Assembly (NCBI GenBank): GCA_002423545.1
Contig: DIWP01000046.1
Coordinates: 32,437 to 96,436, forward strand
Direction: 5' to 3'
From: Thermoleophilia bacterium UBA6103
Lineage (GTDB): Bacteria; Actinomycetota; Thermoleophilia; UBA2241
DNA: 64,000 nucleotides
Program-made: the position numbers and the translations under genes
Part shown: positions 12,602-30,299 of the stretch, in pieces
How positions within the stretch are numbered: the first letter of the stretch is position 1
Layout of the letters: every line of letters begins with the position of its first letter
The notes under the pieces: model-generated
The model's database searches: none
Told to the model about the DNA's origin: nothing
What the model saw: the letters and a program-made list of their open reading frames with translations, nothing else

Positions 12602-13786
12602 ATGGACCTCTTCGAGTGGCACGGCAAGCGTCTGTTCGCGGCGGCCGGCATCCCGGTGCCGCGTGGCAGCGTGGCGCGCACCGTCGACGAGGCGTGTGCA
12701 GCGGCGGCGACGCTGGGGTTCCCGGTCGTCGTCAAGGCGCAGGTACTCACCGGCGGTCGCGGCAAGGCCGGCGGCGTGCGCACCGCCGGCAGCACCGGCG
12801 AGCTCGCCGCGGTCGCCCGGCACATCCTCGATCTGACCATCCGCGGCTTCGCGGTAGACGCGCTGCTCATCGAGGCGGCGCTGGCCATCCGTCACGAGCT
12901 CTACCTGGCTGTGACCCTCGACAGGCGCCGGCGCCGGCCGCTGCTGCTCATCTCGGCCGAGGGCGGCATGGACATCGAGCAGGTCGCGCGCGAGCATCCG
13001 GGCTCGCTGTTCAAGGCGCCGCTCGATCCGCTTCTGGAGCCGTCGCAGGCGGTGCACGATGGTGCGTGGGAGGCTCTCTCCGGAGCTGCCGCCGCGGCGC
13101 GGCTCGACGGCCGCCTGCGCGACGATCTGGTGGACCTTGCGACGGCCGTCTACCGCCTCTACCGCGACCACGACGCGACGCTCATCGAGCTGAATCCTCT
13201 GGCGGTAGTCGAAGGCGACGGCGACGGCGACGGCCACGGCGTTCGTCTCATGGCGCTCGACGCCAAGGTGACCGTCGACGACAACGCTCTGTTCCGGCAG
13301 CCGGACCTGGCGGCCTGGCGCACCGGCGAGGACGAGCGCGAGCGGCGGGCACGTGAGGCCGGCGTCACCTACGTGACGCTCGACGGCGACGTGGGCGTCA
13401 TCGGCAACGGCGCCGGCCTCGTCATGAGTACCCTCGACCTGATCGCCGCGGCCGGCGGTCGGGCGGCCAATTTCTGCGACATCGGCGGCGGCGCGCGGGC
13501 CGATCAGATCGCCGCCGCCCTGCAGATAGTCACCGCCGACGAGCGCGTGCGCGGCCTGCTGGTCAACGTGTTCGGCGGCATCACCCGCGGCGACGAGGTC
13601 GCGCGCGGTCTGCTCGCGGGTCTTCGGCAGCTCTCCGATCGGTCGCTGCCGATGGTCGTCCGTCTCGATGGCAACAACGCGGCCGCCGGGCGCGCGCTGC
13701 TGGCGGCCGAGCGCCCCGGTCTGGCTGTCATGGAGACCCCGTGGGACGCCGTGCAGCGGGTCGTCTCCCTGGTGGCGGAGGGCTGA
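12602..13786 (+). CDS. sucC: Succinyl-CoA synthetase (or related NDP-forming acyl-CoA ligase) beta subunit
   Basis: [20 protein letters not shown]…[21 protein letters not shown]…[15 protein letters not shown]…CDIGGGA. Contains an unusual [10 protein letters not shown] low-complexity insertion. Confidence 0.8.
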
Positions 13787-13787
13787 C

Positions 13788-14738
13788 GTGGCGATCCTGG
13801 TCGACGAAGGCAGCCGCGTCCTGGTGCAGGGCATCACCGGGCGGGAGGGCACGTTCCATACGGAGCGCATGCTGGCCGCCGACACCCGCATCGTGGCCGG
13901 CGTTACGCCGGGCAAGGGTGGCAGCACGGTGCACGAGGTGCCGGTTTTTGGGACCGTCCAGGAGGCGGTGGCCGCGACCGGCGCCGATGTCGCCGTCGCC
14001 TTTGTTCCGGCTCGCTTCGCCAAGGCGGCCGCCCTGGAGTCGGCCGACGCCGGCATACGGCTCGCGGTGCTCATCACCGAAGGCATCCCGGTGCGCGACA
14101 TGGTCGAGCTGACCGCCGAGCTGGAGGGCTTCGGCCTCGACGAGATCCAGCGCCGGGCGCTGGGCCGACGCGACCCCGACGCAGCGGATGAGCCGGTCGC
14201 GTCACGCGGCGGCATGACGCTCGTGGGTCCCAACTGCCCGGGAGTGGTCTCGCCGGGCGCCTGCAACGTCGGCATCATGGCCGCCGACATCTTCCTGCCC
14301 GGTGGCGTCGGCGTGGTTTCGCGCAGCGGCACGTTGACCTACGAGATCGTTGGTGGCCTCACGCGGCTCGGTATCGGCCAGTCGACCTGCGTCGGCATGG
14401 GCGGCGACCCGGTCCACGGCGTGGGCTTCCTGGAATGCCTCGAGTTGTTCGAAGCCGACCCGCAGACCGAGGCGGTGGTGCTGGTCGGCGAGATCGGCGG
14501 CGACGACGAGGAGCGCGCCGCTGCGTACGCTGCCGAGCACCTCACGAAGCCGGTGGTCGCCTACCTCGCCGGCTTCACCGCGCCGCCCGGCAAGCGCATG
14601 GGGCATGCGGGGGCCATCGTCTCCGGCGCCGGCGGCACGGCGGCCGCCAAGGCCGAGGCGCTCGAGGCGGCCGGCATCCCGGTGGCGCGGCGTCCCGATG
14701 AGGTACCGGGTCTGGTGGCCGCGGCACTCGGCCGCTGA
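13788..14738 (+). CDS. sucD: Succinyl-CoA synthetase alpha subunit
   Basis: GTG at 13788, in frame with ORF 13668..14738, 1 nt after the sucC stop. Motifs: [53 protein letters not shown]. There is a roughly 25-30 aa insertion ([31 protein letters not shown]) before the GPNCPG loop. Confidence 0.85.
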
Positions 14739-14879
14739 CCGTAGCGCGTCCGGGAGCCCCCGAAGGGTCTGCGACCCGCGGGCACGCATCGACCGCTTCA
14801 CGGCGGGCCCCGGGGTCCTCGATGGCTCTGCAGCCCGAGGCCACCCACCGACCGCCTCGCGCTCGCAGGACCGAGGCGC

Positions 14880-15554
14880 GTGCTTGTGCTAGCCTTCATG
14901 CTTCGAGCAGCGTCCATCCAGGACGTGCGGGATCGGGGGACAGATGATCGAGCGCGGCGACCGATGAGCAGTCGCACAGGGGGCCAGGCGGCGAAGCGGC
15001 GTACCGCCGGACGTGGCTCTGCGGCGCGGGCGTCGTCGCCGAAGGCACCGGTGAAGATCACCGGCACGCTCTCCAACCTGCTCCTGATCGGACTCGGCCT
15101 GCACGGTGTCGGGATCGTCGGGACCTGTCTCGCCATCGGCATCGCCCTGCGTTCGGCCGGCGACAAGCTGCCGGTGGGTGAGAAGATCTCGTTCCCGCTG
15201 CTGCTTCTCATCGTGGTGCTCGGCACCTACATCTGCTTCGCAAGCGTGCACGGGGCGGCGCTCTACCTGATCCGCCGTGGCGGGAACGAGCAGGGACTCA
15301 CCATGATGGCGTTCGGCGGCGGGGTGCTCGCCATCGCCACGATAGCGGGCGGCTTCTACGCTTTCGGCGAGCGGTTCTTCATGCTCGGTGCGGCGGCGGC
15401 GTATGCGGTGCCCTATTCGCTGGCGCCGCTGATCGTGGGGCTGCCGACCACCGCCGCTGCCGCCGTGCTGGCGTTCCGCCAGAGACGCGGCGGCTCGGGC
15501 AGCCGCTCGGGCAGCCGGTCGCAGCGCGCCCAGCAGCCGCGCCTGCTGCGCTGA
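14880..15554 (+). CDS. Hypothetical membrane protein (about 4 predicted TM helices); start uncertain, possibly Met at 14964
   Basis: Hydrophobic segments (LLLIGLGLHGVGIVGTCLAIGIAL, FPLLLLIVVLGTYICFASV, GGVLAIATIAGGFYAF, AAAAYAVPYSLAPLIVGL). No family recognised. Confidence 0.4.
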   Translation: MLVLAFMLRAASIQDVRDRGTDDRARRPMSSRTGGQAAKRRTAGRGSAARASSPKAPVKITGTLSNLLLIGLGLHGVGIVGTCLAIGIALRSAGDKLPVGEKISFPLLLLIVVLGTYICFASVHGAALYLIRRGGNEQGLTMMAFGGGVLAIATIAGGFYAFGERFFMLGAAAAYAVPYSLAPLIVGLPTTAAAAVLAFRQRRGGSGSRSGSRSQRAQQPRLLR

Positions 15555-15783
15555 AGGCCGGCCCTTGCGCCGACCGGCCGACCTGCGCTGATTGGCCAAT
15601 CGCCCCCGCCGCGTCTGCCGGTGTGGTGCATCGCCCGCCCTTTCGTCCTCGAGCGAGCGTGTGCTAGCGTTCAAAGGCTTCAGGGTAGGAGCCGCGAAGC
15701 GCCACAGCACCGGCAAGCTTGCATGCGGACGGCCGTGGCCGCCGCTCCGCGGACTATCGGCGTCGAACAGGGAGGAGACCCCC

Positions 15784-17673
15784 ATGCCCCAGCCAGAGCA
15801 CCAGCCCACCGTCGAGGAGCTCAAGGCCAAGGCCTACCAGCCCATGGAAGACGCCACGGTCCTGCATCCGTTCTACAAGGGCAAGATCGAGACCACGCTC
15901 AAGTGCTGCGTGCGCGACTTCCAGGACTTCGGCATCTGGTACACGCCCGGCGTCTCGGCTCCCTGTCTGGAGATCAAGGACGACCCCGAGAAGATCTACG
16001 AGCACACCAACAAGTGGAACACGGTGGCGGTCATCAGCGACGGCACCCGCGTTCTCGGCATGGGAGACATCGGCCCCAAGGCCGGCATGCCGGTCATGGA
16101 GGGCAAGAGCCTGCTCTACAAGTACCTGGGCGGCGTCGACGGCTTTCCGCTGATGGTGGACACGAAGGATCCCGACCGCTTCATCGAGTTCGTCAAGCTC
16201 GTCCAGCCGGGCCTCGGCGGCGTCAACCTGGAAGACATCGCCCAGCCCAAGTGCTTCCGCATCCTCGACACGCTGCGCGAGGAGTGCGAGATCCCGGTCT
16301 GGCACGACGACCAGCAGGGCACCGCCTGCGTCACCTTGGCCGGCCTCATCAACGCTCTCAAGGTCACCGGCAAGAAGATCGACGAGATCAGGATCGCCTT
16401 CATCGGCTCGGGGGCGGCCAACGTGGCCATCAGCCGCCTCATCTTCCACTACGGCGCCCGCCCCGAGCTGGCCCGCGTCTGCGACTCCAAGGGCATCCTG
16501 CACAAGGGCCGCAGCGACATCGAGGCCGTCAAGGACGAGTGGGTCGACAAGTGGAAGTACTGCCAGATCACCAATGAGGAGCAGCGGACCGGCAGCATCG
16601 CCGAAGCCCTGGCCGGCGCCGACGTCTGCATCGCCCTCTCCAAGCAGGGTCCGGACACCATCGTGCCGGAGTGGATCAAGGGCATGAGCCCCGACCCGAT
16701 CGTCTTCCTGTGTTCCAACCCGATTCCCGAGATGTGGCCCTGGGATGCGCTGGAGGCGGGCGCCGCGGTGGTCGCCACCGGCCGCTCCGACTTCCCCAAC
16801 CAGGTCAACAACAGCCTCGGGTTCCCCGGCATCTTCCGCGGCACCCTCGATGTGCGCGCCAAGACGATCACCGACGAGATGTGCATCGCCGCCGCCGAGG
16901 AACTCGCCAGGCTGGCCGAGGAACAGGGCCTGCGGCCCGACTACATCATGCCGACCATGGACGACTGGGAGGTCTTCCCGCGCGAGGCCGCCGCGGTGGC
17001 CATGAAGGCGGTCGAGCAGGGCGTGGCGCTGCGCACCGACATCACCTACGAGCAGGAGAAGGCCGAGGCCACAGAGATCATCGCCCGGGCCCGCGGCCTG
17101 GTGCAGGACGCCGAGGCGCTCGGCTACATCAAGATGCCGAAGGGCAGCAAGCCGCCGGCGCCGACGAAGCAGGCTGTGCGGGCGGTCGGGCGCGGCGTGG
17201 CGGCCGATGCCCGGGCCAAGGGCACCGCCGCCGCCGACGAGGCGCGCGAACGCGGCAAGCAGCTGCTGGCCGACGCGCGCGAGCAGGCCAAGCGGATCGT
17301 CGCCGAGGCCCGCTCGGAGGCCCGCCGTGCCGGCGGCGACGCACGCACCCAGGCGCGGGCCGACGCCCGGCAGGTCGTCGCCGACGCCAGGCACGAGGCC
17401 ACGGAGATCGTCGACGAAGCGGTCCACCACGCCAGCGAGACCATGGACGAGGCTCACGTGAAGGCGCGCGAGCTGGTGCAGGAGGCGGTGGCCGAGGCCA
17501 GGCGGATCACCCAGGAGGCGCAGAAGACGCTCGGCAAGTCGGCCGAGGCGGCCGCCGAGAAGGGCAAGCAGGTCGCCAAGGAGGCCAAGGCCGCCGCCAA
17601 GGAGGCCGCCAAGCAGGCGAAGAAGGCGCGCGCCAAGGCCAAGGACAAGAAGAAGGGCAAGAAGGGCAAGTAA
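15784..17673 (+). CDS. NAD(P)-dependent malic enzyme with about 190-aa C-terminal Ala/Glu/Lys/Arg-rich extension
   Basis: ATG at 15784 is preceded by GGAGGAG. Malic-enzyme motifs (VLHPFYKGKIETTLKC, GIWYTPGVSAPC, VISDGTRVLGMGDIGPKAGMPVMEGKSLLYK, FIGSGAANVAI). From about nt 17170 there is a low-complexity helical tail ending in KKARAKAKDKKKGKKGK. Confidence 0.85.
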   Translation: MPQPEHQPTVEELKAKAYQPMEDATVLHPFYKGKIETTLKCCVRDFQDFGIWYTPGVSAPCLEIKDDPEKIYEHTNKWNTVAVISDGTRVLGMGDIGPKAGMPVMEGKSLLYKYLGGVDGFPLMVDTKDPDRFIEFVKLVQPGLGGVNLEDIAQPKCFRILDTLREECEIPVWHDDQQGTACVTLAGLINALKVTGKKIDEIRIAFIGSGAANVAISRLIFHYGARPELARVCDSKGILHKGRSDIEAVKDEWVDKWKYCQITNEEQRTGSIAEALAGADVCIALSKQGPDTIVPEWIKGMSPDPIVFLCSNPIPEMWPWDALEAGAAVVATGRSDFPNQVNNSLGFPGIFRGTLDVRAKTITDEMCIAAAEELARLAEEQGLRPDYIMPTMDDWEVFPREAAAVAMKAVEQGVALRTDITYEQEKAEATEIIARARGLVQDAEALGYIKMPKGSKPPAPTKQAVRAVGRGVAADARAKGTAAADEARERGKQLLADAREQAKRIVAEARSEARRAGGDARTQARADARQVVADARHEATEIVDEAVHHASETMDEAHVKARELVQEAVAEARRITQEAQKTLGKSAEAAAEKGKQVAKEAKAAAKEAAKQAKKARAKAKDKKKGKKGK

Positions 17674-17739
17674 GGCCCGCGCGCCACCCCGTACGACCAG
17701 ATGGCCGACGCCGACCGTCGGCCGCAGGAGGTGATCGCG

Positions 17740-18591
17740 ATGCCCGTCAGAGAGGTCGACGTCGCCGACGTGACGGCGGCCATCGAGCGCCTCTGCAAGG
17801 AGGCCAACTACGACCTGCCCAAGGACGTCTACGCGGCGCTCGAGGCGGCCAAGAAGACGGAGGAGTCGCCGGTAGGCCGGGCCGTGCTCGACCAGCTCAC
17901 CGAGAACGCGGACATCGCCGCTCGCGACCGCGTGCCCATCTGTCAGGACACCGGCTACGCGGTGCTGTTCATCGACGTCGGGCAAGACGTGCACTTCACC
18001 GGCGGCGGCTTCGAGGACGCGGTGCACGAAGGCGTACGCCGCGGCTACACCGAGGGCTACCTGCGCAAGAGCGTGGTCGAACAGCCGGCGCACGCCCGGG
18101 CCAACACGAAAGACAACACGCCGGCCGTGATCCACACGCGGATAGTGCCCGGCGGCGGAGTCCGCATCCTCTTCATGCCGAAGGGCGGCGGCGCCGAGAA
18201 CATGAGCAGCCTGAACATGCTCAAGCCGGCGCAGGGCGTGCAGGGGGTCATCGACGCGGTCGTCGAGACGGTCTCGAAGGCCGGCTCCAACCCCTGTCCG
18301 CCGGTGGTCATCGGCGTCGGCATCGGCGGTAGCATCGACATGGTCACGGTGCTGGCCAAGAAGGCGCTGGCCCGCGAGATCGGCTCACGGCATCCCGACC
18401 CGCGGCTGGCCGAGCTGGAGGACGAGCTGCTGCGCCGCATCAACGCGCTGGGCATCGGTCCGCAGGGTCTGGGCGGCACCACCACCGCCCTGGCCGTGTT
18501 CATCGAGGAGATGCCGAGCCACATCGCCAGCATGCCGATGGCGGTCAACGTGCAGTGCCACGCGCAGCGCCACGTGGTGGCGGAGCTCTGA
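17740..18591 (+). CDS. Class I fumarate hydratase (or L(+)-tartrate dehydratase), alpha / N-terminal-domain subunit
   Basis: FumA-N / TtdA motifs (PICQDTGYAVLFIDVG, ILFMPKGGGAENMS, VVIGVGIGGS). Start taken as the internal Met (MPVREVD); 17701 is also possible. Confidence 0.8.
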   Translation: MPVREVDVADVTAAIERLCKEANYDLPKDVYAALEAAKKTEESPVGRAVLDQLTENADIAARDRVPICQDTGYAVLFIDVGQDVHFTGGGFEDAVHEGVRRGYTEGYLRKSVVEQPAHARANTKDNTPAVIHTRIVPGGGVRILFMPKGGGAENMSSLNMLKPAQGVQGVIDAVVETVSKAGSNPCPPVVIGVGIGGSIDMVTVLAKKALAREIGSRHPDPRLAELEDELLRRINALGIGPQGLGGTTTALAVFIEEMPSHIASMPMAVNVQCHAQRHVVAEL

Positions 18592-18611
18592 AGCGACGCG
18601 GGAGGAGTGAG

Positions 18612-19166
18612 ATGGTCAAGAGGATCACGACCCCGCTGACCGACGAGGTCGTCAGAGACCTGCGCATCGGCGACGAGGTCCTCATCAGTGGTGTGGTCTA
18701 CCAGGCGCGCGACGCGGCCCACAAGCGCATGGTCGCGCTCATCGAGCAAGGGGAACCGCTGCCGTTCGAGATCCAGGGCGCGGTGATCTACTACATGGGG
18801 CCGTCGCCGGCCAGGCCCGGCAACGTGATCGGCTCGGCCGGTCCCACCACCAGCGGCCGCATGGACGCGTACGCGCCGCTGCTCATGGAGAAGGGCCTCA
18901 AGGGCATGATCGGCAAGGGTCTGCGCACCGACGCGGTCAAGCAGGCGATGGTCGACACCACGGCGGTGTACTTCGCCGCCACCGGCGGCGCCGGCGCCCT
19001 GCTGGCCCAGCGCATCACCGGCAACGAGGTGATCGCCTGGCCGGAACTGGGCGCCGAGGCGCTGGCCCGGCTGCAGGTCGAGGACTTCCCGGCGATCGTG
19101 GTCGGCGACTGCCACGGCGGCGACCTCTATGAGGTGGGCCGCAGGGAGTACGCGCGCCAAGTGTGA
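18612..19166 (+). CDS. Class I fumarate hydratase beta / C-terminal-domain subunit
   Basis: ATG at 18612 is preceded by GGAGGAG. FumA-C / TtdB motifs (RITTPLTDEVVRDLRIGDEVLISGVVYQARDAAHKRM, YYMGPSPARPGNVIGSAGPTTSGRMD). Confidence 0.8.
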   Translation: MVKRITTPLTDEVVRDLRIGDEVLISGVVYQARDAAHKRMVALIEQGEPLPFEIQGAVIYYMGPSPARPGNVIGSAGPTTSGRMDAYAPLLMEKGLKGMIGKGLRTDAVKQAMVDTTAVYFAATGGAGALLAQRITGNEVIAWPELGAEALARLQVEDFPAIVVGDCHGGDLYEVGRREYARQV

Positions 19167-19203: not shown

Positions 19204-20178
19204 ATGAGCGATGTCGGCATCATCGATCGCGCCGTCGCGGCGGCCATACCGCTGGTGCCGACGCGCCTGGTGCGTACCTTCGCGGCGCCGTACATCGGCG
19301 GCGAGACGCTCGAACAGGCGCTCTCCGTGGTGCGCCGCCTCAATGCGGCCGGACTGGCCGCCAGCCTCGATGTCCTCGGCGAGGACGTCCACGACGAGGC
19401 CGGCGTGCGGGCCATGGTGGCGGCCTATCGGCAGGCGCTGGCGGCGCTGGCCGCCGGGAGCGCCGACGCCGGTGTGAGCGTCAAGCCCAGCGCCCTCGGG
19501 GCCGCCATCGACTGGGATCGCTGTCACGACGCCATCGTCGAGGTACTCGACGGGGCGGCCGCGTCGTCCGCAGGCGGCGGCCGCTTCGTCCGGCTGGACA
19601 TGGAGGAGTCGGCCACAGTCGACGGTACGCTGGCGCTGTACCGCCGTCTGCGCGAGGAGGGACGGGAGCGCGTCGGCATCGTCCTGCAGGCGCGGCTCTG
19701 GTGCACGTCGGCGGACGTCAAGGCACTGGCCGACCTGGCTCCGGACGTGCGCCTCTGCAAGGGCATCTACCTCGAGCCGCCGAGCGTCGGCATGCAGGAC
19801 CGTGAGGCGATCCGGCACAGCTTCTCGGCGCTGCTGCGGCAGCTGCTGCGCGCCGGCTCCCGGGTCGCGATCGCCACCCACGACGAGGTGCTGGTGACCG
19901 ACGCGCTGGCGGCCATCGACGAGTATTCTGTGCCGGCCGCCGGCTACGAGTTCCAGATGCTGTTGGGCGTGCGCGGTGACCTGGCGCGGACGCTCCGTCG
20001 CGCCGGCCACCGCGTGCGCATCTACGTACCCTTCGGCAAGGACGTCTTCGGCTACTCCGTGCGGCGGCTGCGCGAGAACCCGGCGGTCGCTGGCCACGTG
20101 GCCCGGGCTTTGCTCGCCGACCTCGTCCGCGGCGTCCGCCACGGCCGTCGGCGACCCGATGGGCAGGGCGTGCGATGA
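19204..20178 (+). CDS. Proline dehydrogenase (second paralog)
   Basis: The same ProDH motif set as 11233..12213 (LDVLGEDV, VSVKPSALG, VRLDMEES, RLCKGIY, AIATHDE, YEFQMLLGVR, RIYVPFG). Paralogous to it by eye. Confidence 0.8.
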   Translation: MSDVGIIDRAVAAAIPLVPTRLVRTFAAPYIGGETLEQALSVVRRLNAAGLAASLDVLGEDVHDEAGVRAMVAAYRQALAALAAGSADAGVSVKPSALGAAIDWDRCHDAIVEVLDGAAASSAGGGRFVRLDMEESATVDGTLALYRRLREEGRERVGIVLQARLWCTSADVKALADLAPDVRLCKGIYLEPPSVGMQDREAIRHSFSALLRQLLRAGSRVAIATHDEVLVTDALAAIDEYSVPAAGYEFQMLLGVRGDLARTLRRAGHRVRIYVPFGKDVFGYSVRRLRENPAVAGHVARALLADLVRGVRHGRRRPDGQGVR

Positions 20179-20287
20179 GCCGACCGTTGCGGCGGGCAGG
20201 TGAGATGAGCCGACGGCTCCGGCCGGCAGAGTGGAAGATGAGCCGGCCGTCTTGGCGGGTGCGGGCGGACGACCGTACGGCCACTGA

Positions 20288-21073
20288 GGAGAGGCAGGTC
20301 CAGGTGAGCATGGACGATTACCGGCCCCGCGATCCCAAGCCGCGCTCTTCGACCGTCTGCGCTGCGTGGACTACGGCGACGTCTTCTTCCACGCCGGCAA
20401 CATGTTCGACTTCCTCGACCAGGCCGAGCGGACCGTGAGCGGGATCCTGGCCGGCGGCGCTCAGGTGCTGGCGTTCGGCGGCGACCACATGATCCCGCTG
20501 CCGATCGTGCGCGCGTACGCGAAGCACCTGAAGCGCCCGCTCTCGCTGGTCCACTTCGACGGGCATCTCGACGACTGGGACACCTTCCCCTAATAGTGGG
20601 GCGGTAGCTGGGTGACCGAGCTGGCCGACGAGGGGTGCCTGGATCTGTCGCGCTCGGTGCAGCTCGGCATCCGCGTGCTGGGCGACGAGGCGCCGGAGGG
20701 AGAGCTCTACCCGGCGACCTCGGATGCTGTCGTCATCGGCGCCGACGAGTGTCTCGACGAGGGTCCTCTGGCCGCCGCGGCGCGGGTCCGTGAAGTGGTC
20801 GGCGACGCGCCGGTCTACCTGACCTTCGACGCCGACTTCCTCGACGCGTCGGTGGCGCCGGCCTGCCACACGCCCTGCGTCTGCGGGCCGGACACGTACT
20901 GGACCAAGCGGTTCTTCCGCGCCGTGCGCGGCCTCAACGTGGTGGGGGCAGACGTCAACGAGCTCTGCCCCCAGTACGAGCCGCCGCTGGGCCCCACCCA
21001 GCTCGCCCTGGGCCACGTGGCGTTCTGGACCTTGCGGCTCATGGAACAGGTCCCGGGCTGCGTCTCGGGCTGA
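20288..21073 (+). pseudogene. Agmatinase/arginase (ureohydrolase) family gene, N-terminally truncated and interrupted by in-frame tandem stops TAA-TAG at 20591-20596
   Basis: ORFs 20366..20593 and 20612..21073 are in the same frame and together span ureohydrolase motifs (VDYGDV…AFGGDHMI…LVHFDGHLD, then SVQLGIRV…VYLTFDADFLD…GADVNELCPQYEPP). An upstream in-frame TGA at 20285 leaves no room for the usual 60-80 aa N-terminus. Confidence 0.6.
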
Positions 21074-21363
21074 CGGCGGCCGGTGCGCATTGTCGATCGA
21101 CCGCGATCGATCGACAGGTCGGGAGATCGGCCGGCATCGAGCGGCCGGGATCGAGCGGCCAAGGCCGCGCACCCTGTCGTCGACGCCGGCCGCCCGCGCA
21201 ACGTCACCCTGCCACAGATGGCATCGTCTCCCTTGCTCGCAGATCGTCGACCTTGGCCGGTCCGACGCGAGCGAGTATCTTCGAGTGGTCATGTAGCTGT
21301 TGCAGTCTGCAAGCAAAGTGCTAATCTGGGAGGTGTGTCGGAGTGACCGGGACTGGAGTGGCC

Positions 21364-21630
21364 ATGCCCACGCTGTACCTGCGCGACGTGCCCGAGCACG
21401 TCATCGAGGAGCTTCGCCGGCGCGCTTCCGCCTCCCGGCGGTCTCTGAATGCAGAAGCGATCGTCTGTCTTGAACAGGCACTTGAGCGCAGTGGGGCCGC
21501 GGAGCGTCTCGACGTGGAGGGCATCGTCAGTCGTCTCGATGAGTTCGCCGAGCGGACGCGAGACAAGTGGGGAAGCGAAGACTCGGCCGACATCATCAGG
21601 GAGGGTCGGGAAGAGCGGGGCGACTGGTGA
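21364..21630 (+). CDS. Ribbon-helix-helix antitoxin (VapB/FitA-like)
   Basis: MPTLYLRDVPEHVIEELRRRASASRRSLNAEAIVCLEQAL is an Arc/MetJ-type RHH. The stop overlaps the PIN-gene GTG (GTGA). Confidence 0.6.
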   Translation: MPTLYLRDVPEHVIEELRRRASASRRSLNAEAIVCLEQALERSGAAERLDVEGIVSRLDEFAERTRDKWGSEDSADIIREGREERGDW

Positions 21631-22070
21631 CGGACTGCGGGGCGTGCGTCGTGGATGCCAGTGTGGGTGTGAAGCGACTGCGGCAGAAGGAGGCGCACTG
21701 GAGGCAGGCGCGGGCGCTTGTCGACAGTGCAGGTGTGAATGCGAGCATACGGTTCGTGCCGGACCTCTTCGACCTGGAATGCACGCATGCCGTCGTGAAG
21801 CTCCACCGCCGTGCGGAGCTCAGTCGCAGCGAGTCGCTCGAGGCGGTCCGGCTTCTCCACCGCCTTCCCTTGGCGCGAGTGCCTTCGCGGCCCCTCTTGC
21901 GTGACGCTGCCCGACTGGCTGTTGGAAGTGGGATCAGCGCCTACGACGCTGTCTACGTGACCCTTGCCGTCGCGCTCGATGTCCCGCTGGTCACCGCCGA
22001 TGAGCGGCTGGCGCGGTCGATGGAGGGCATGTCGGTCGAGGTGGTACGGCTGGCAGACATCGACGCCTGA
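21627..22070 (+). CDS. vapC: PIN-domain toxin VapC
   Basis: GTG at 21627 is in frame with ORF 21567..22070. PIN acidic residues lie in VVDASVGVKRL…FVPDLFDLE…SAYDAVYVTLAVALDVPLVTADERL. Confidence 0.7.
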   Translation: MTDCGACVVDASVGVKRLRQKEAHWRQARALVDSAGVNASIRFVPDLFDLECTHAVVKLHRRAELSRSESLEAVRLLHRLPLARVPSRPLLRDAARLAVGSGISAYDAVYVTLAVALDVPLVTADERLARSMEGMSVEVVRLADIDA

Positions 22071-22247
22071 CCGCCCGTGACTGCGGCGGGCGGCCCAGCC
22101 ACGAGTCTGCTTTCGCCGATTCGGCAAGACTGCTAGGCTACCGGCCTGACGGCCGCGGCCGTATGCCGCGCCGCCGTTTCGTATTCGCGGCCGGAGACGT
22201 CGGAGTCTCCGGCCCGCGCGGACCGCAGTACTGGGAGAGTCCGTCAG

Positions 22248-23921
22248 TTGATTGCTCACGAGGTGCTGATCATCGGCGCCGGCCTGGCCGGCATGCGGGC
22301 GGCGATCGCCGCTCACGATGCCGGCGCCGACGTCGCTCTGGTCAGCAAGGTCCACCCCGTCCGCAGTCACACATGCTGCGCGCAGGGCGGCATCAACGCC
22401 GCCCTCGGCGACGACGACTCGTGGGAAGCCCACCTGTTCGACACCGTCAAGGGATCGGACTACCTGGGCGACCAGGACGCCATCGAGGTCATGTGCAAGG
22501 CGGCACCCGGCGACATCCGTGCCCTGGAGCACATGGGTTGCCCGTTCAGCCGCTTCGAGAACGGGCGCATCGCGCAGCGGCCGTTCGGCGGCGCCGGCTT
22601 TCCGCGCACGGCCTACGCCGCCGACATCAGCGGCTTCGTGCTCCTGCATACCATGTACGAGCAGGTCCTGCGCCGCGGCATCCGCCTCTATCAAGAGTGG
22701 TACGTCACCCGTCTCGTGCTCGACGACGGCGTCGCGCGCGGCGTGGTCGCCATCGACCTTCTCACCGGGAAGCTGCATGCCATGGCCGCCAAGGCGGTGG
22801 TGATCGCCACCGGGCCGGCCAGCCGCATCTACCAGAGCTCGTCCAATTCGGTCGACTGTACCGGCGACGGCATGGGCATGGCCTATCGTGCCGGCCTGCC
22901 GCTCATGGACATGGAGTTCGTGCAGTTCCACCCCACCGGGCTGCGCAACGGGGTGCTGATCACCGAGGGCTGTCGCGGAGAGGGCGGCATCCTGCTCAAC
23001 AGTGACGGCGAGCGGTTCATGAAGCGCTACGCGCCCACCAAGGGCGAGCTCGCCAGCCGCGACGTGGTCTCGCGCGCCGAGGCGACCGAGATCGCCGAGG
23101 GACGCGGCATCGATGGGTTCATCATGCTCGACCTGCGCCCCATCGGGCCGGAACGTATCCGCACCAACCTGCTGCAGGTACGCGAGCTGTCCATGGACAT
23201 CGCCGGCGTGGATCCCTGCGAGGCGCCGATCCCCATCCGACCCACGCCGCACTACTTCATGGGCGGCGTACGGGCCGGCGTCGACGGCAGGTCGCCGGTT
23301 GCCGAGGGGGCCTACTTCGCCGGCGAGGTGAGCTGCATCAGCGTGCACGGCGCCAACCGGCTGGGTGGCAACTCGCTGCTCGACGCGGTGGTGTTCGGCC
23401 GTCGCTCGGGAGAGGCGGCGGCCGCCCATGCCGCCGCACACGAGCAGCTGCCGCTGCCGGAGAGCGCCGTGCGCGACCAGGAGGCGGAGATCGCCGAGCT
23501 GGCCGGCCGCGACGGCGACGGCGAACGGCAGGCCACCATCCGCGAAGAGCTGCAGAAGCTGATGTTCGCCAAGGTCGGCATCTGGCGCGAGAAGGGCGCC
23601 CTTGCCGAGGCCGTGGACGAGGTGCGCGCGCTCAAGGAACGGTACGCGCGCGTCCGGCTGGGCCACGCCGGGGCCGTGTTCAACACCGAGCTGCCGCAGG
23701 TACTCGAGACGGGCAACCTGCTCGACCTGGCCGAGTGTGTGGCCATGGGCGCGCTCGATCGCGAGGAGAGCCGCGGCAGCCACGCGCGCACCGACTTCCC
23801 GGAGCGCGACGACGAGGTCTGGATGAAGCACAGCCTGTTCACGCGTGGCGACGACGGCCCCGTCTGCGACACTGCGCCGGTCACGATCACCCGCTACGAG
23901 CCGGAAGTGAGGACCTACTGA
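22248..23921 (+). CDS. sdhA: Succinate dehydrogenase / fumarate reductase flavoprotein subunit
   Basis: FAD-binding flavoprotein motifs (VLIIGAGLAGMRAAIAA, HTCCAQGGINAA, RSHTVAAEGG-like, HYFMGGV, ISVHGANRLGGNSLLD). Confidence 0.85.
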   Translation: MIAHEVLIIGAGLAGMRAAIAAHDAGADVALVSKVHPVRSHTCCAQGGINAALGDDDSWEAHLFDTVKGSDYLGDQDAIEVMCKAAPGDIRALEHMGCPFSRFENGRIAQRPFGGAGFPRTAYAADISGFVLLHTMYEQVLRRGIRLYQEWYVTRLVLDDGVARGVVAIDLLTGKLHAMAAKAVVIATGPASRIYQSSSNSVDCTGDGMGMAYRAGLPLMDMEFVQFHPTGLRNGVLITEGCRGEGGILLNSDGERFMKRYAPTKGELASRDVVSRAEATEIAEGRGIDGFIMLDLRPIGPERIRTNLLQVRELSMDIAGVDPCEAPIPIRPTPHYFMGGVRAGVDGRSPVAEGAYFAGEVSCISVHGANRLGGNSLLDAVVFGRRSGEAAAAHAAAHEQLPLPESAVRDQEAEIAELAGRDGDGERQATIREELQKLMFAKVGIWREKGALAEAVDEVRALKERYARVRLGHAGAVFNTELPQVLETGNLLDLAECVAMGALDREESRGSHARTDFPERDDEVWMKHSLFTRGDDGPVCDTAPVTITRYEPEVRTY

Positions 23922-24982
23922 TGCCGGCCGCCGACGACCCTGGTGTCCCGCCTGTGACTGCGGCTCTGGCCATCCGCCGCTACGATCCGGAGCTCGGCGA
24001 TGAGGCTCGCTGGCAGCGCTACGAGATCGAGATGCCGGCCGGCTCCACGGTGCTCGAGGCGCTCATGTACGTGCAGGAGCACGTCGACGGATCGCTCGCC
24101 TTCCGCCGCAGCTGCCGGCACGCCATCTGCGGCTCGTGCGGCATGCGCATCAACGGGTGTGCCCGCCTGGCCTGCAACACGCAGCTCACCGCGGTCGTCG
24201 CCGAGGCCGAGCGGCGCGCGGCACGCCGGAGCGCCGCGGCGACGAGCGGCGACGACGACGCGGCGCTCGCCGGCGCCGCCGTGCGCATCGAGCCGCTCGG
24301 CAACATGCCGGTCATCAGGGACCTGGTCACAGACATGACCGTCTTCTGGGAGAAGCTGCGCAGCGTGCAGCCGTGGCTGCAGTCGCTCGACGATCGCGCC
24401 GACGCCGATGGCGAGCGGCTGATGACACCGCACCAGTATGCCGTCATCGCTCAGGGTCTGCTGTGCGTGGAGTGCGGCGCCTGCTACTCGGACTGCATCG
24501 CCGTGGAGGCGGCGCCCGAGTTCGTCGGCCCCACGTCGCTGGTGAAGGCCTACCGGTACGCCTACGACGTGCGGGACGATCAGGCGCATCGACGTCTACA
24601 CGATCTCGCCGGCGAGCACGGCATGTGGGAGTGCACGCACTGCTACGTCTGCACCCAGCGCTGTCCCAAGCATCTGCGGGTCCGCGAGCTCATCGGGCGC
24701 CTGTCCGAGCTGGCGCAGGTCGAGGGGTTGTGCAGCGACGCCGCCGTGAAGCGGTCTCAGGCTTTCGTGGCCGGCATCGAGCAGAGCGGCCGGGTCGACG
24801 AGCGGACGCTCGCCGAGAAAGCGGGCGCGGTGCGCGGTGGCGTGTCGGCGGCGCTTCCGGCGCCGGTCTCCGAGATGTTGCGGGGCGGCGCCCGCGAGCC
24901 GATCTCTGATGTGGACCTGGTGCGGCGCGTCGCCGGTCGGCTGCGTGGACCGGGGAGCACCGGCGCCGAGGGTGCGCCATGA
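23921..24982 (+). CDS. sdhB: Succinate dehydrogenase / fumarate reductase iron-sulfur subunit, type-E-like (extra cysteine in the third cluster motif)
   Basis: [2Fe-2S] motif CRHAICGSCGMRINGCARLAC. Two C-x2-C-x2-C-x3-C(P) motifs (CVECGACYSDC and CTHCYVCTQRCP); the second, with four Cys, is the hallmark of type-E SdhB. It also carries an Ala/Arg-rich insertion and a C-terminal extension. Confidence 0.8.
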   Translation: MPAADDPGVPPVTAALAIRRYDPELGDEARWQRYEIEMPAGSTVLEALMYVQEHVDGSLAFRRSCRHAICGSCGMRINGCARLACNTQLTAVVAEAERRAARRSAAATSGDDDAALAGAAVRIEPLGNMPVIRDLVTDMTVFWEKLRSVQPWLQSLDDRADADGERLMTPHQYAVIAQGLLCVECGACYSDCIAVEAAPEFVGPTSLVKAYRYAYDVRDDQAHRRLHDLAGEHGMWECTHCYVCTQRCPKHLRVRELIGRLSELAQVEGLCSDAAVKRSQAFVAGIEQSGRVDERTLAEKAGAVRGGVSAALPAPVSEMLRGGAREPISDVDLVRRVAGRLRGPGSTGAEGAP

Positions 24983-26052
24983 GGTACGCCTACTATCCCG
25001 GCTGCTATGCCAAAGGCACCGCGCCCGAGCTCGACAGCAGCACGAGGGCCGTCTGCGAGAGGCTTGGCATCGAGCTGGAAGAGCTCACCGCCGCGCCGTG
25101 CTGCGGCGCCGGCGACGTGCAGCAGGTCGACGGTCCCCTGGCACAGGGCCTCAACGAGCTCACGCTCGCGCAGGCCCAGCACCTCGGTCTGGACATCCTC
25201 ACGATCTGCAACGTCTGCACGCTGAGCCTGCGGCAGGCGAACGTCGCGGTCGAGGAGGGTCGGCACCTCGACAGGGGGTCGGCGTGCCTGGCGGTGGCCG
25301 ACCCCGGCTGCCCGGCGTCTGCCGATGGCGCGAGCGACTCGGCACCGACGGTGCTACCGGGCGGTGCGACAGAGGATCCGCCGCCGGCCGGCGCGGCCGC
25401 GACGGGCGGCCCCGTGCCGCCGGGCTTCGGGCAGCGCTGGCCGCTCTCCGGCGCCGAGGCGGCTGCCGCCACGACCGCCGCGCTGGCACCGGAAGGCCTG
25501 GCCTATGCCGGCGGCGTCGCTGTCACCCACCTGCTCTGGGTGCTGTGGAAGGATGTCGGCGTCGAGCGGCTGGCGGAACAGGTGCAGCAGCGTCTCGGCA
25601 GTCTCACGCTGGCGCCCTTCTACGGCTGTCAGATCCTGCGGCCGGCTGCTGTCAACGACGACGACGTGGCCGACGATCCCACCGCCCTCGAAGATCTTGT
25701 CGCCGCCTGCGGTGCCGCCGCCGTCGACTACGACGGCCGTCTCAAGTGCTGCGGCTGGCCGGTCATGTACGTCCGTCAGTCGGCGGCCACCACCATGGCG
25801 GCGCGGGTCGTCCGCAACGCGGCGGCGGCCGGCGCCGACGCCATCGTCACGCCGTGCCCTCTCTGTCATGCGGCTCTGGAAGGCTGCCAGTCGGCGTCCG
25901 CCACCGGCTCCGAGCGGCTGCGTCTGCCGGTGCTGCATCTGCCGCAGATGATCGGCCTCGCGCTCGGATGCTCGCCGCGTCGTCTCGGCCTCGTCGACCA
26001 CGCCATCGACACCAGGCCGCTGCTCGCACGCCTCGGCCTTACGCTCGCCTGA
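24979..26052 (+). CDS. HdrB-like CCG-domain subunit (SdhE / TfrB C-terminal-domain-like) of a type-E succinate dehydrogenase or fumarate reductase
   Basis: Two CCG cysteine-rich domains (YPGCYAKG…PCCGAG…CNVCTLS and FYGCQILRP…KCCGWP…CPLCHAALEG), separated by a roughly 90-aa Ala/Pro/Gly-rich low-complexity insert. ATGA overlap with sdhB. Confidence 0.75.
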   Translation: MRYAYYPGCYAKGTAPELDSSTRAVCERLGIELEELTAAPCCGAGDVQQVDGPLAQGLNELTLAQAQHLGLDILTICNVCTLSLRQANVAVEEGRHLDRGSACLAVADPGCPASADGASDSAPTVLPGGATEDPPPAGAAATGGPVPPGFGQRWPLSGAEAAAATTAALAPEGLAYAGGVAVTHLLWVLWKDVGVERLAEQVQQRLGSLTLAPFYGCQILRPAAVNDDDVADDPTALEDLVAACGAAAVDYDGRLKCCGWPVMYVRQSAATTMAARVVRNAAAAGADAIVTPCPLCHAALEGCQSASATGSERLRLPVLHLPQMIGLALGCSPRRLGLVDHAIDTRPLLARLGLTLA

Positions 26053-26235
26053 GCCACGGTCGCGCTCGGCCTTCCGGCGCCGATTTGGGCGCGGGTGATG
26101 AACCGCGGCTCAGGGGGCATATCCTTAGCTCATGAAGAAAGTCGTCGCGATGGCCTCCCCTCTTCTGACGAGACCGGTGTTCGGCCGGGTCTCACGCGCG
26201 TCGCGCTTCCGTGATCAGTCACAGGCGGACGGCTC

Positions 26236-26820
26236 ATGATCGGCTGGCTGTTCGCGGTCGGGCGCATGGTCGGCTTCGGCAGCGCCGCCGGCGTGCGGCC
26301 GGCGCTCACCCTGGCTGTGATCGGCGCCATGTCGCTCGTCGGCATCGGCCCCGACGTCCAGCCGCCGTTCCTCTTCCTCGAGCGCTGGTGGGTCATCCTC
26401 ATCTTCGCTGTGCTGGCGATCCTGGAGGGCAAGTTCGACAACGTCCCCAAGCTCGACCGCATCCAGGATCGCATCCTCGTCCCGTGGCGGATCGCGATCG
26501 GCGGTGTGGCGGCGGCGGCGACGGTGCCCCACGGCGTCACCGGGCTGGTCGTGGGTCTCACCGTGGGCGCCGCGTTCGGCTGGCTGAGCCAGTCGGTCAA
26601 GCATGGCAGCCGGCCGATCCAGCCGCCGAGCGGTCTGGCGGTGGCGTTGATCAGCCTCTCGGAGGACCTCTACGCGCTCGGAGGCGTGGTGGCGACGGCG
26701 ATCTTCTCGCCTCTGGGATACGCCTTCGCCGCGGTCAACATCTGGTTGTTCGTGCGGCTGCGCCGGCGGCGTCGCCTGCGGTACCGCGCCAAGCGCGGGA
26801 TCGCGGATGGATCGCCGTAA
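26236..26820 (+). CDS. Integral membrane protein (DUF4126-like)
   Basis: Four to five hydrophobic helices (LTLAVIGAMSLVGIGP, WWVILIFAVLAILEG, GLVVGLTVGAAFGWL, GGVVATAIFSPLGYAFAAVNIWLFV). The family assignment is from memory and is tentative. Confidence 0.5.
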   Translation: MIGWLFAVGRMVGFGSAAGVRPALTLAVIGAMSLVGIGPDVQPPFLFLERWWVILIFAVLAILEGKFDNVPKLDRIQDRILVPWRIAIGGVAAAATVPHGVTGLVVGLTVGAAFGWLSQSVKHGSRPIQPPSGLAVALISLSEDLYALGGVVATAIFSPLGYAFAAVNIWLFVRLRRRRRLRYRAKRGIADGSP

Positions 26821-27151
26821 GGTGTGGTCGGCGATGAGCCCGGGAGGCAGAGACGAGGCGGACGGCGCCGGCGAGCGCGTCACGGCGGTCCGGGCGCGCA
26901 TCGAAGGGCGTGTCCAAGGGGTGTTCTTCCGCGTCTCGACGCGGCAGGTGGCCCGGTCGCTCGGGGTCACGGGGTGGGTCCGCAACCTGCCGGGCGGCGC
27001 TGTGGAAGCGTTCCTCCAGGGGGCGCCCGACGCCGTCGAAAGGGCGCTGGACTGGTGCCGCGAGGGGCCGCCCGGCGCGCGGGTCGATCGCGTGCAGGTG
27101 CGATCGGCCGATGCCGACGAACGCTGGACCGACTTCAGCGTCAGGGGATGA
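26807..27151 (+). CDS. acyP: Acylphosphatase
   Basis: VRARIEGRVQGVFFRVSTRQVARSLGVTGWVRNLPGGAVEAFLQG matches the acylphosphatase signatures. The start may be the Met at 26834. Confidence 0.7.
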   Translation: MDRRKVWSAMSPGGRDEADGAGERVTAVRARIEGRVQGVFFRVSTRQVARSLGVTGWVRNLPGGAVEAFLQGAPDAVERALDWCREGPPGARVDRVQVRSADADERWTDFSVRG

Positions 27152-27200
27152 GGGCGGCCCGACGGCCGGCGCCACGACACGACACGATGAGCGAGGCAGC

Positions 27201-27875
27201 ATGAACGAGAGCCAGCGCGTGACTCTGGACACCATACGCGAGGACTACGAGACGCAGATGTACATCGCGCGCGCCGATGACAATCTGGCCGTGCTCGGCT
27301 TCACCGAGCACGGCGACCGGCACTGCAGCGCCGTGGCCATGACCGCGCAGACCATCCTTCTGGAGCTCGGATGGCCGCAGCGCCGGGCCGAGCTGGCGGC
27401 GATCGCCGGGTACATGCACGACATGGGCAACATGATCACCCGCGAGCAGCACGGCATCGCCGCGGCGCTGCTCGCCCGTCACATCCTGGACCGCCTGGGG
27501 ACGCCGCTGGCGGAGACGATCGACGTCATGTGCGCCATCGGCAATCACGAGGAGGAGTACGGCGAGCCGGTCAGTGAGGTGGCGGCCGCCGTGATCCTCG
27601 GCGACAAGAGCGACGTGCGGTCCGACCGCGTGCGCGAGACCGGCGACGTGGTCGGCGACATCCACGACCGCGTCAACGCCGCCGCCGAACGGGCCTCGGT
27701 CTCGGTCGACCCGGACAGCAGGACGATCACCCTGGCCCTGCAGATCGACACCGATGTCTCGCCGGTGATGGAGTACTTCGAGATCTTCCTCAGCCGCATG
27801 GTGCTCTGCCGGCGGGCGGCGGAGTTCCTGGGATGCGATTTCCATCTGGTCATCAACGACGTGCGACTGCACTGA
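27201..27875 (+). CDS. HD-domain metal-dependent phosphohydrolase
   Basis: HD motif (FTEHGDRHCSAVA…GYMHDMGN…NHEE). Start ATG at 27201, in frame with ORF 26910..27875. Confidence 0.65.
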   Translation: MNESQRVTLDTIREDYETQMYIARADDNLAVLGFTEHGDRHCSAVAMTAQTILLELGWPQRRAELAAIAGYMHDMGNMITREQHGIAAALLARHILDRLGTPLAETIDVMCAIGNHEEEYGEPVSEVAAAVILGDKSDVRSDRVRETGDVVGDIHDRVNAAAERASVSVDPDSRTITLALQIDTDVSPVMEYFEIFLSRMVLCRRAAEFLGCDFHLVINDVRLH

Positions 27876-27927
27876 TCCAGGCGGTGGCCTTGGTAGGATG
27901 CGACGATCACGGGATGGGAGGTCTCAC

Positions 27928-28200
27928 GTGGCGGAGAACGGACGCAGAGGGGTGTTCCTGGTCGGCCTGGCGGCCGGTGCGGCGGCGACGTGGCTGCTGG
28001 CGACCGGCAAGGGCCGCGCGCTCTGCAGCCGGCTGACGGCCGGCAGGCGCGGCCCGGAGCCGGACCAGCTCGTCGACGTCGAATCGTCCGCCTGGCAGGA
28101 TGCGGCGGACGCCGACGAACGCTCCGAGGCGCTGCGTCGCAAGATCGACGAGACGCGACGCCGGCTGCGCGAGCAGGTCGGCCTGCCGCCGGAGGCATGA
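27928..28200 (+). CDS. Small protein with an N-terminal TM helix and a charged C-terminal helix (YtxH/DUF948-like)
   Basis: GTG at 27928 is preceded by GGGAGG. VFLVGLAAGAAATWLLATGKG is followed by a coiled-coil-like C-terminus. The stop overlaps the next start (ATGA). Confidence 0.4.
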   Translation: MAENGRRGVFLVGLAAGAAATWLLATGKGRALCSRLTAGRRGPEPDQLVDVESSAWQDAADADERSEALRRKIDETRRRLREQVGLPPEA

Positions 28201-29150: not shown

Positions 29151-30299
29151 TCAGCTCTCAGCAGGCTGCCGCTGGAAGCGTTCCGCGAGCCGCACCAGCG
29201 GCGGGTTGACGGCGTCGATGGCTCCGGTGGGGCACACTTCGACGCAGGCGTAGCAGCGGACGCAGCGGTCGTCGTCGTAGACCGGCACGCGAGCGAGCGT
29301 GCAGGCGCCGTTGCCGCAGATGCCGGCGCACTCCCCGCAGCGGATGCACAGCGAGGGGGCCACCACCCGTGGCCGGGCGGTCAGCAGACGGCGGCCGACG
29401 GCCCGCAGGCGGCGCGGTATGCGGGCATCGAGATCACGGCCGGCGTGGACGAACCCGGGTTCGTCCACGATCTGGTCGCCGGTGGCCTGGTACGGTGTCT
29501 GGAGGTCGATGATGCCGCGTCGTTCGGCGGCGGCCAGCGTGTACACCTCGGCCCGGTCATGACCGGTGCGGTCGGCCAGGGCCGCGTCCAGAGCCACGGC
29601 ATCGTGTGCGGCGAAGAGCGAGCCGAGGGCACAGGGCGTGCCGCCGCCGGGACCCTGACCCTGCATGGCGACGATGCCGTCGATGATCGTGAACCGGGGC
29701 GCCAGTCCCAGGTGGAGGTCGAGCAGCATGTCGGCGAAGTCGGCCCGCTCCGGCAGGTTGATGTGCAGGCGCGCCTTGGTGAGCCCGGGGATGCAGCCGA
29801 AGGTGAGCTTGACGCCCCCGGTGAGGCGCATGAGCTGATGTGTCTTGAGCGGCCCGAGCTGTACGATGCCGTGCGCCTCCACGAACGATCGTGCCACGGT
29901 GAAGGAGCGAAAGCGCAGGCCGTCGGGACAGGGGAACGGCAGGCCCTCGTTCTCGACGTCGCGCAGCTCCACGTGCTCCTGCATACAGACGTCGGCGATG
30001 CCGCTGAGCTTCCAGATGCGGGCGATCTTCTGCGGCGGATTGCGCCCGCCGGGACTGTCGGCGACGAACGGCTCGGCGCCGGCCGCCTTGATCGCCCGCA
30101 GCACCGCGCGCAGCGTCTCCGGGTGGGTGCAGACGGCGCGCTCGGGCTCGGCGCCGCGCAGCAGGTTGATCTTGACGGCGATGCGCTCGCCGGGCCGCAC
30201 GATGCGGGTCCAACCGCCGAACGGGGCCACCAGCCGCTCCAGGTGCCCGGGCAGACCGGGACCGTGCTCGGCGCGGACGTGACTGACAAGCGCCGGCAC
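29151..30299 (-). CDS. DUF362-domain protein with C-terminal 2x[4Fe-4S] ferredoxin domain
   Basis: DUF362 core (IAVKINLL, IADVCMQEH, GIVQLGPLKTHQLMRLTGGVKLTFGCIPG) plus CIRCGECAGICGNGAC and CVRCYACVEVCP. Confidence 0.65.
   Translation of the reverse strand: MPALVSHVRAEHGPGLPGHLERLVAPFGGWTRIVRPGERIAVKINLLRGAEPERAVCTHPETLRAVLRAIKAAGAEPFVADSPGGRNPPQKIARIWKLSGIADVCMQEHVELRDVENEGLPFPCPDGLRFRSFTVARSFVEAHGIVQLGPLKTHQLMRLTGGVKLTFGCIPGLTKARLHINLPERADFADMLLDLHLGLAPRFTIIDGIVAMQGQGPGGGTPCALGSLFAAHDAVALDAALADRTGHDRAEVYTLAAAERRGIIDLQTPYQATGDQIVDEPGFVHAGRDLDARIPRRLRAVGRRLLTARPRVVAPSLCIRCGECAGICGNGACTLARVPVYDDDRCVRCYACVEVCPTGAIDAVNPPLVRLAERFQRQPAES

Follow-up and report, generated by a model that had tools for sequence, protein, structure and literature searches.

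The window analysed is a stretch of 64,000 nt of Thermoleophilia bacterium UBA6103 (assembly GCA_002423545.1, contig DIWP01000046.1, positions 32,437 to 96,436 of the forward strand), an uncultured high-GC Actinomycetota bacterium. Its G+C content is about 70%. This bacterium has been recovered in independent assemblies of several metagenomes. Genes were called by open reading frame (ORF) picking based on G+C at third codon positions (GC3) and by Pfam and NCBIfam scans of the window. Four consecutive genes were recognized on the + strand, namely sdhA, sdhB, sdhE, and a gene for a DUF4126 membrane protein. The flavoprotein subunit SdhA (22248..23921) has 557 aa, the iron-sulfur subunit SdhB (23921..24982) 353 aa, and the HdrB-fold subunit SdhE (24979..26052), with two CCG domains, 357 aa. 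The stop codon of sdhA and the start codon of sdhB share 1 nt (TGATG) and those of sdhB and sdhE share 4 nt (ATGA), which indicates that sdhA-sdhB-sdhE is a single translationally coupled unit. The locus is an ordinary copy of the bacterial three-subunit "non-classical" (type E) succinate dehydrogenase/fumarate reductase SdhABE, a classification based on motifs, fold, synteny, and hidden Markov model (HMM) scores. An earlier note on this DNA had described a type-E-like SdhA, a four-Cys SdhB, and an HdrB-like SdhE without SdhF, and motifs, domains, and HMM scores uphold this description.

The sdhA gene starts with TTG, and GGGAGAG is present 5' of the start. Its product scored 746 bits against TIGR01812 (cut-off 567), and the domains FAD_binding_2 (E = 2e-103) and Succ_DH_flav_C (E = 4e-39) were recognized on it. 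The translation retains the RSHT His (covalent FAD site) and the catalytic motifs HPTG, RGEGG, HYxMGG, and NRLGGNSL. As in other type E enzymes, the flavoprotein is of the SdhA/FrdA type and has both a dicarboxylate site and the His that binds FAD covalently. No Tat or other signal peptide was found on SdhA, as the first start codon of the ORF opens straight into the GxGxxG FAD fold. The enzyme therefore faces the cytoplasm, unlike the periplasmic methylmenaquinol:fumarate reductase (MFR). No transmembrane (TM) segments were predicted in SdhA, SdhB, or SdhE.

SdhB consists of a 2Fe-2S domain, two ferredoxin-type cluster motifs, and a C-terminal tail of about 104 residues; the domains were identified as Fer2_3 and Fer4. 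The top NCBIfam models are the Fe-S families of succinate dehydrogenases and fumarate reductases PRK12577, PRK12576, and TIGR00384, with about 235 bits each. The C-terminal half is weakly HdrC-like (TIGR03290, 30 bits). Cluster motif III reads C238-T-H-C241-Y-V-C244-T-Q-R-C248-P (24632..24667, + strand) in the alignment with E. coli FrdB, where Cys241 is aligned exactly to Val207. The motif C-x2-C-x2-C-x3-CP claimed for SdhB by the earlier note is thus present as such, with four Cys and not the three that would have spoken against it. The extra Cys241 predicts, from sequence, a second [4Fe-4S] cluster replacing the [3Fe-4S] cluster, and such a replacement is documented for type E enzymes (PMC2680327; PMC3578206). 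The same motif together with a tail of 100-115 residues was found in 68 of the 70 SdhB ORFs adjoining sdhE in other loci.

SdhE belongs to PF02754 (E = 5e-27). Its two CCG domains, already proposed for the third gene in the earlier note, contain the motif cysteines C9, C41, C42, C77, and C80 and C217, C257, C258, C293, and C296, respectively, and all ten are invariant or nearly so among 66 homologues. The best-scoring curated NCBIfam models are SdhE of MFR with 193 bits and HdrB with 177 bits. The AlphaFold2 model of SdhE has a mean predicted local distance difference test score (pLDDT) of 87 and a predicted template modelling score (pTM) of 0.84. When compared in Foldseek, it was superimposed on HdrB (5odc_B) with a template modelling score of 0.94 normalised to HdrB, rmsd of 1.7 A, and 28% identity. 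In agreement with the type E arrangement, this subunit with two CCG domains and without transmembrane helices is encoded together with sdhAB, where it replaces SdhC/D.

Between the CCG domains, SdhE has a loop rich in Ala, Pro, and Gly (residues 100-157; 25276..25449, + strand; recognized by AlphaFold2 and alignment). In the AlphaFold2 model, these residues lack secondary structure and their pLDDT is about 50; 57% of them are Ala, Pro, or Gly. The inter-domain linker is 101 residues long versus 37 in 48 of the 66 homologues. By this linker comparison and by the model, the insert has about 58-64 residues; the Ala/Pro-rich insert seen earlier is real, but its length of about 90 aa was overestimated. 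The insert is confined to the close relatives of the window, where 30 to 67 extra residues were found. An extra metal site formed by C103 and C111 was rejected, as the relatives P0009, P0010, and P0019 have the insert without these Cys. Being limited to close relatives, variable in length, and without conserved Cys, the insert is best read as a lineage-specific disordered decoration of SdhE and not as a cofactor site. It is the only local peculiarity of the locus. Two motifs of the insert are semi-conserved, namely (C)LAVADPG(C) at 25285-25311 (residues 103-111) and PPGFGxxWP at about 25414-25443 (about residues 146-155). They are kept in relatives down to about 62% identity while the rest of the insert varies, which suggests constraint on part of the loop.

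The distribution of the module was surveyed with one genome per species. The survey gave at least 80 sdhE loci, all from distant relatives, and close relatives were found by a separate search. The surveyed lineages include Dehalococcoidia/SAR202, Nitrospirota, Nitrospinota, cyanobacteria, Actinomycetes (Gaiellaceae, Patulibacter, and Solirubrobacteraceae), Eremiobacterota, and others. More than 2,600 SdhE homologues were found at E <= 1e-5; these are mostly 290-305 aa long and without the insert. The order sdhA-sdhB-sdhE is present in about 60 of the 80 listed loci, while in the cyanobacterial loci sdhE stands by itself with no sdhAB alongside. From this recurrence, four-Cys SdhB, the long SdhB tail, and SdhE are a standard co-inherited package. 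In one locus of a Solirubrobacteraceae metagenome-assembled genome (L048, 5936-7942, + strand), SdhB and SdhE are coded in one uninterrupted ORF of 668 codons, a TfrB-like layout. The junction …AQAQGLQGGQADLPRCPRSRGALRAQPLRRGRGGRDR-MKVAYWPGC… resembles a spacer read-through, and it could represent a true fusion, a frameshift, or a stop codon lost in the assembly.

SdhF, a subunit of the archaeal type E enzymes only, is missing from the window operon. The small-ORF search proposed in the earlier note, to which no SdhF was evident, gave neither an SdhF-like gene nor any other conserved small ORF at the operon or in related loci, and none recurs beside sdhE from lineage to lineage. The absence of SdhF, pointed out in that note, is no anomaly, because the three-subunit SdhABE is published for bacteria and is also the form in most of the 80 listed loci. 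Wolinella succinogenes and Campylobacter jejuni have sdhABE and no SdhF-like protein, and their SdhE has no predicted TM domain, with membrane binding predicted to occur via amphipathic helices (PMC2680327). The type E enzyme of Nitrospina was also described as a three-subunit enzyme (PMC3578206). Bacterial SdhABE without SdhF and TM helices is membrane- and quinone-linked (PMC2680327; PMC2754724; PMC3578206). As SdhF is absent from the characterised bacterial SdhABE as well, it is not defining for the bacterial form.

Several small ORFs were inspected as SdhF candidates. An ORF of 35 codons at 26133-26240, which overlaps the DUF4126 gene by ATGA, was rejected since its protein is not conserved in the close relatives L085-L087. 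Small ORFs that recur 3' of sdhE in other loci were rejected as well, as they are not hydrophobic and are not present in the window. One of them, conserved in ten Nitrospirota loci (L003, L008, L010, L019, L035, L049, L050, L058, L061, and L069), codes for a cupin-like protein of about 105 aa and is positioned 3' of sdhE at a distance of <=25 nt in nine loci and 188 nt in L069. Its cupin identity was judged from sequence (GHVHGDQDKVYLVLEGQG...), and it is possibly a lineage-specific accessory gene of the type E operon. Another is a conserved acidic ORF of about 98 aa located 26-76 nt after sdhE in L062, L066, L070, and L074, all from one bacterial clade; its product is predicted to be helical/coiled-coil and has no hydrophobic segment.

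Compared with known systems, the window operon shares with SdhABEF of Sulfolobus/Acidianus the flavoprotein SdhA, the extra Cys of motif III with its second [4Fe-4S] cluster, the two-CCG SdhE without TM helices, and the lack of a haem anchor. It differs in the absence of SdhF and in the disordered insert of about 60 residues in SdhE. As the organism is a bacterium, menaquinone is expected in place of caldariellaquinone. With MfrABE of W. succinogenes and C. jejuni (PMC2680327) the operon has in common the sdhABE arrangement without SdhF, the four-Cys SdhB with a long tail, and the TM-less SdhE. The MFR flavoprotein, however, has a Tat signal and is periplasmic, unlike the window SdhA. All three window proteins are far below the equivalog cut-offs of the MFR models (500 vs 1100, 153 vs 600, and 193 vs 500 bits). 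The three-subunit type E SQR-2 enzymes annotated in Nitrospina/Nitrospira, cyanobacteria (slr0201), and Dehalococcoidia are similar in gene order, in the SdhB motif and tail, and in being cytoplasmic. Their SdhE proteins, 33-48% identical, are the nearest relatives outside the clade of the window. These relatives have no insert in SdhE, the Nitrospirota add the cupin gene after sdhE, and cyanobacteria have the genes scattered.

TfrAB of Methanothermobacter also combines a fumarate reductase module with a two-CCG-domain module, but TfrB is a single fused polypeptide, and the enzyme is soluble and works with CoM-SH and CoB-SH. The window proteins are below the cut-offs of both TfrA and TfrB, and the window genes are unfused. 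HdrB/HdrC (PDB 5ODC) share with the window the fold of SdhE and the weak likeness of the C-terminal half of SdhB to HdrC. The partners of SdhE are, however, the flavoprotein and Fe-S subunit of complex II and not HdrA/Mvh. Scores against the HdrB models are also low (TIGR03288 177 vs 345 bits, NF041780 48 vs 450 bits), and the neighbouring genes are sdhA/sdhB instead of hdrA/hdrC. The classical complex II types A-D differ as well, since there is no SdhC/D or FrdC/D in the window and motif III has four Cys. Among the coding ORFs rich in TM segments in the 64-kb window, the stretch to which this search was limited, none matches an Sdh/Frd anchor family.

Subunit identities, cysteine patterns, fold, gene coupling, and family-wide synteny, all computed here, together make it probable that SdhABE is a cytoplasm-facing, peripherally membrane-bound type E succinate:menaquinone oxidoreductase. 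SdhA with covalently bound FAD would interconvert succinate and fumarate. Electrons would pass through SdhB from [2Fe-2S] to [4Fe-4S] and on to the second [4Fe-4S] in place of the usual [3Fe-4S]. They would then reach the HdrB-fold SdhE, whose two CCG domains are expected to hold Fe-S (possibly Zn) sites. With its long C-terminal tail, SdhB probably clasps SdhE in a manner comparable to that of HdrC on HdrB. SdhE would attach the complex peripherally to the membrane without TM helices and exchange electrons with the quinone pool, presumably menaquinone. Actinomycetota use menaquinone. By analogy with the characterised enzymes, we infer both the monotopic membrane binding and the quinone partner.

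Several points weigh against this reading. No clear amphipathic membrane-binding helix was found in SdhE by hydropathy and hydrophobic-moment analysis of the predicted helices, so membrane attachment rests on analogy. No structure of any type E complex is solved, and the quinone site is not located even in the characterised enzymes. Moreover, none of the window proteins reaches the equivalog cut-off of any curated NCBIfam model related to type E (MFR, PRK12576/12577), and they therefore represent a family relative rather than an orthologue of a characterised enzyme.

The genes upstream, also on the + strand, code for succinyl-CoA synthetase beta and alpha, an orphan ORF with four TM segments, malic enzyme, and class I fumarase alpha and beta; proline dehydrogenase, a disrupted arginase-family gene, and a vapBC-like pair are coded there as well. 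The C4-dicarboxylate cluster of sucC, sucD, malic enzyme, and class I fumarase alpha/beta lies at 12596-19166 (+ strand), and this backbone is shared with the relatives L087-L090. In L087, fumarase is directly 5' of sdhABE. The fumarase and the other C4-dicarboxylate neighbours support the substrate pair succinate/fumarate well. As to direction, an enzyme without a transmembrane anchor coupled to the proton motive force should favour menaquinol:fumarate reduction or operate near equilibrium. On these thermodynamic grounds, the non-electrogenic window enzyme with low-potential menaquinone should favour fumarate reduction or be near equilibrium. A reductive branch would fit the malic enzyme nearby and the class I fumarase, which is O2-labile; SucCD, proline dehydrogenase, and the Gln of the SdhA motif "HT..AQGG" fit succinate oxidation. 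This Gln is presumably an oxidation signature, in line with the work on E. coli SdhA Q50 / FrdA E49.

The fourth gene (26236..26820, + strand) codes for a DUF4126 protein of 194 aa (PF13548, 76 bits) with five predicted hydrophobic segments. It is separated from sdhE by 183 nt and corresponds to the polytopic membrane protein that had been placed 180 nt downstream in the earlier note. The last 14 nt of the gene, stop codon included, overlap an acylphosphatase gene that begins at 26807, and the DUF4126 gene is therefore the first gene of a downstream unit. A long hairpin, CCTGAGCC...GGCTCAGG, extends from the sdhE stop codon and is followed by GGGCATATCCTTAG with a TAnnnT box (window 26047-26135, + strand). 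L085 has kept both hairpin and box, and L086 has kept them in part. In stability, the fold of the sdhE-DUF4126 spacer does not exceed that of shuffled sequence (z = -0.5). The hairpin and the TAnnnT box are possibly a terminator and the -10 box of the DUF4126/acylphosphatase unit, and as weak evidence they are compatible with its separate transcription.

The proposal that the DUF4126 protein is a novel polytopic anchor or quinone-binding partner in place of SdhF/SdhCD, raised in the earlier note as a novel membrane partner, starts from its position. The gene comes after sdhE, in the same orientation, both in the window and in the close relatives L085, L086, and L087 (90%, 62%, and 51% SdhE identity, respectively), a few further relatives probably have the two genes adjacent as well, and a literature search gave no functional information on DUF4126. 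The acylphosphatase, HD, metallophosphoesterase, DUF362, methyltransferase, CsoR-like, and PHP genes are, however, equally syntenic in L085-L087, and since these unrelated downstream genes are conserved just as well, the adjacency is a matter of general synteny. A phmmer search (E <= 1e-3) gave no DUF4126 within +/-7 kb of sdhE in any of the 80 distant loci, which belong to other lineages, and neither did an HMM of 46 family members at E <= 10. The more distant relatives L088, L089, and L090, located by DUF4126 itself (46-50% identity), have a backbone of malic enzyme, fumarase alpha and beta, DUF4126, PCMT/acylphosphatase, HD, metallophosphoesterase, and DUF362, with no sdhABE between fumarase and DUF4126. 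DUF4126 is thus a backbone gene that is kept also where the enzyme is missing. Its overlap with the next gene is 4 nt in L088 and L090 and 8 nt in L089. The operon sdhABE was either inserted between fumarase and DUF4126 or lost from there. With the overlap with acylphosphatase and the gap of 183 nt carrying the conserved hairpin and TAnnnT box added to this, the role of DUF4126 as a partner of the enzyme is contradicted and is extremely improbable.

A soluble enzyme was also considered. The earlier note had put forward a thiol:fumarate reductase. In such an enzyme, a thiol of low molecular weight or of a protein, for example one of mycothiol type or a DsrC/LbpA-like carrier, would be oxidised to disulfide by SdhE and the electrons passed to fumarate, as TfrAB of methanogens does with CoM-SH and CoB-SH. 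The full HdrB fold with all ten cluster-binding cysteines and the lack of a TM segment and of a clear amphipathic helix would suit such an enzyme, and type E is thought to have descended from soluble thiol:fumarate reductase (TFR) (PMC2754724). The source metagenome, judging by its record name, is possibly an anaerobic enrichment, which would suit it as well. The same cysteines are nevertheless conserved in the quinone-linked Sulfolobus and the methylmenaquinol-linked Wolinella enzymes and so do not discriminate between a thiol and a quinone as the partner. The scores give the thiol version no specific support: TfrA reached 470 bits against a cut-off of 718, and the TfrB model gave 139 vs 385 bits for SdhB and just 23 bits for SdhE, far less than the MFR SdhE and HdrB models. 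Moreover, sdhB and sdhE are separate overlapping genes while TfrB is fused, the family is widespread in aerobes (cyanobacteria, Nitrospira, SAR202), and the operon has no linked gene for a thiol carrier or for thiol biosynthesis. A thiol-linked enzyme is therefore very unlikely. The same low probability applies to SdhABE as a soluble bacterial counterpart of the methanogen TFR, in which the SdhE loop with its AVADP and WP motifs would be a docking element. Hydrogenobacter thermophilus has a five-subunit NADH-dependent fumarate reductase, and SdhABE could likewise be the catalytic core of a soluble fumarate reductase fed by NAD(P)H or ferredoxin via extra subunits encoded elsewhere. No membrane element was detected, partner genes can be unlinked, and a DUF362/ferredoxin-domain gene is part of the conserved backbone (29151-30299). 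This gene, however, is coded on the other strand and occurs also in backbones that lack sdhABE. Neither in the window nor in the 80 loci does the operon have a coupled gene for an NAD(P)H-binding protein or a ferredoxin oxidoreductase, and the characterised SdhE-containing enzymes are quinone-linked. A supply of electrons by this route is likewise very unlikely, and the quinone-linked, peripherally membrane-bound SdhABE is the reading preferred here.

Some further features of the region were noted. A perfect inverted repeat of 9 nt, GCCGGAGAC-N6-GTCTCCGGC (window 22190-22213, + strand), lies between the vapC-like gene and sdhA, about 35 nt 5' of the sdhA start. It could be an operator or a hairpin at a transcript end. 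Simple scans of 21000-27400 for sigma-70 promoters and intrinsic terminators gave no match, and neither did an Rfam scan of 20000-28000. Tandem in-frame stop codons, TAA TAG (20591-20596), break the arginase-family gene (20288-21073, + strand) into two ORFs, one of 101 and one of 153 aa. This break is also seen in the independent assemblies L081 and L082 of this genome, while the gene is intact in L085 and L086 (333 and 338 aa); in the window, it is probably a pseudogene. Between fumarase and DUF4126, the genes sdhABE, proline dehydrogenase, arginase, and vapBC may be there or missing, and with this variable content the position looks like an insertion/deletion hotspot. The ORF between sucD and malic enzyme (14745-15554, + strand, GC3 0.83) codes for a protein with a basic N-terminus and about four hydrophobic segments, with no Pfam match even at E <= 1. 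A DUF3870 gene is located at about this place in L088 and L089. As an anchor of the enzyme this ORF was rejected, being about 7 kb and six genes away from sdhABE.

The locus has little importance beyond correct annotation, and for the question of membrane and quinone binding it is no better a handle than thousands of homologues. Annotation of the adjacent DUF4126 gene as an anchor of complex II should be avoided. For the family, the locus places a type E SdhABE in an uncultured clade of Actinomycetota, within a cluster of C4-dicarboxylate genes.

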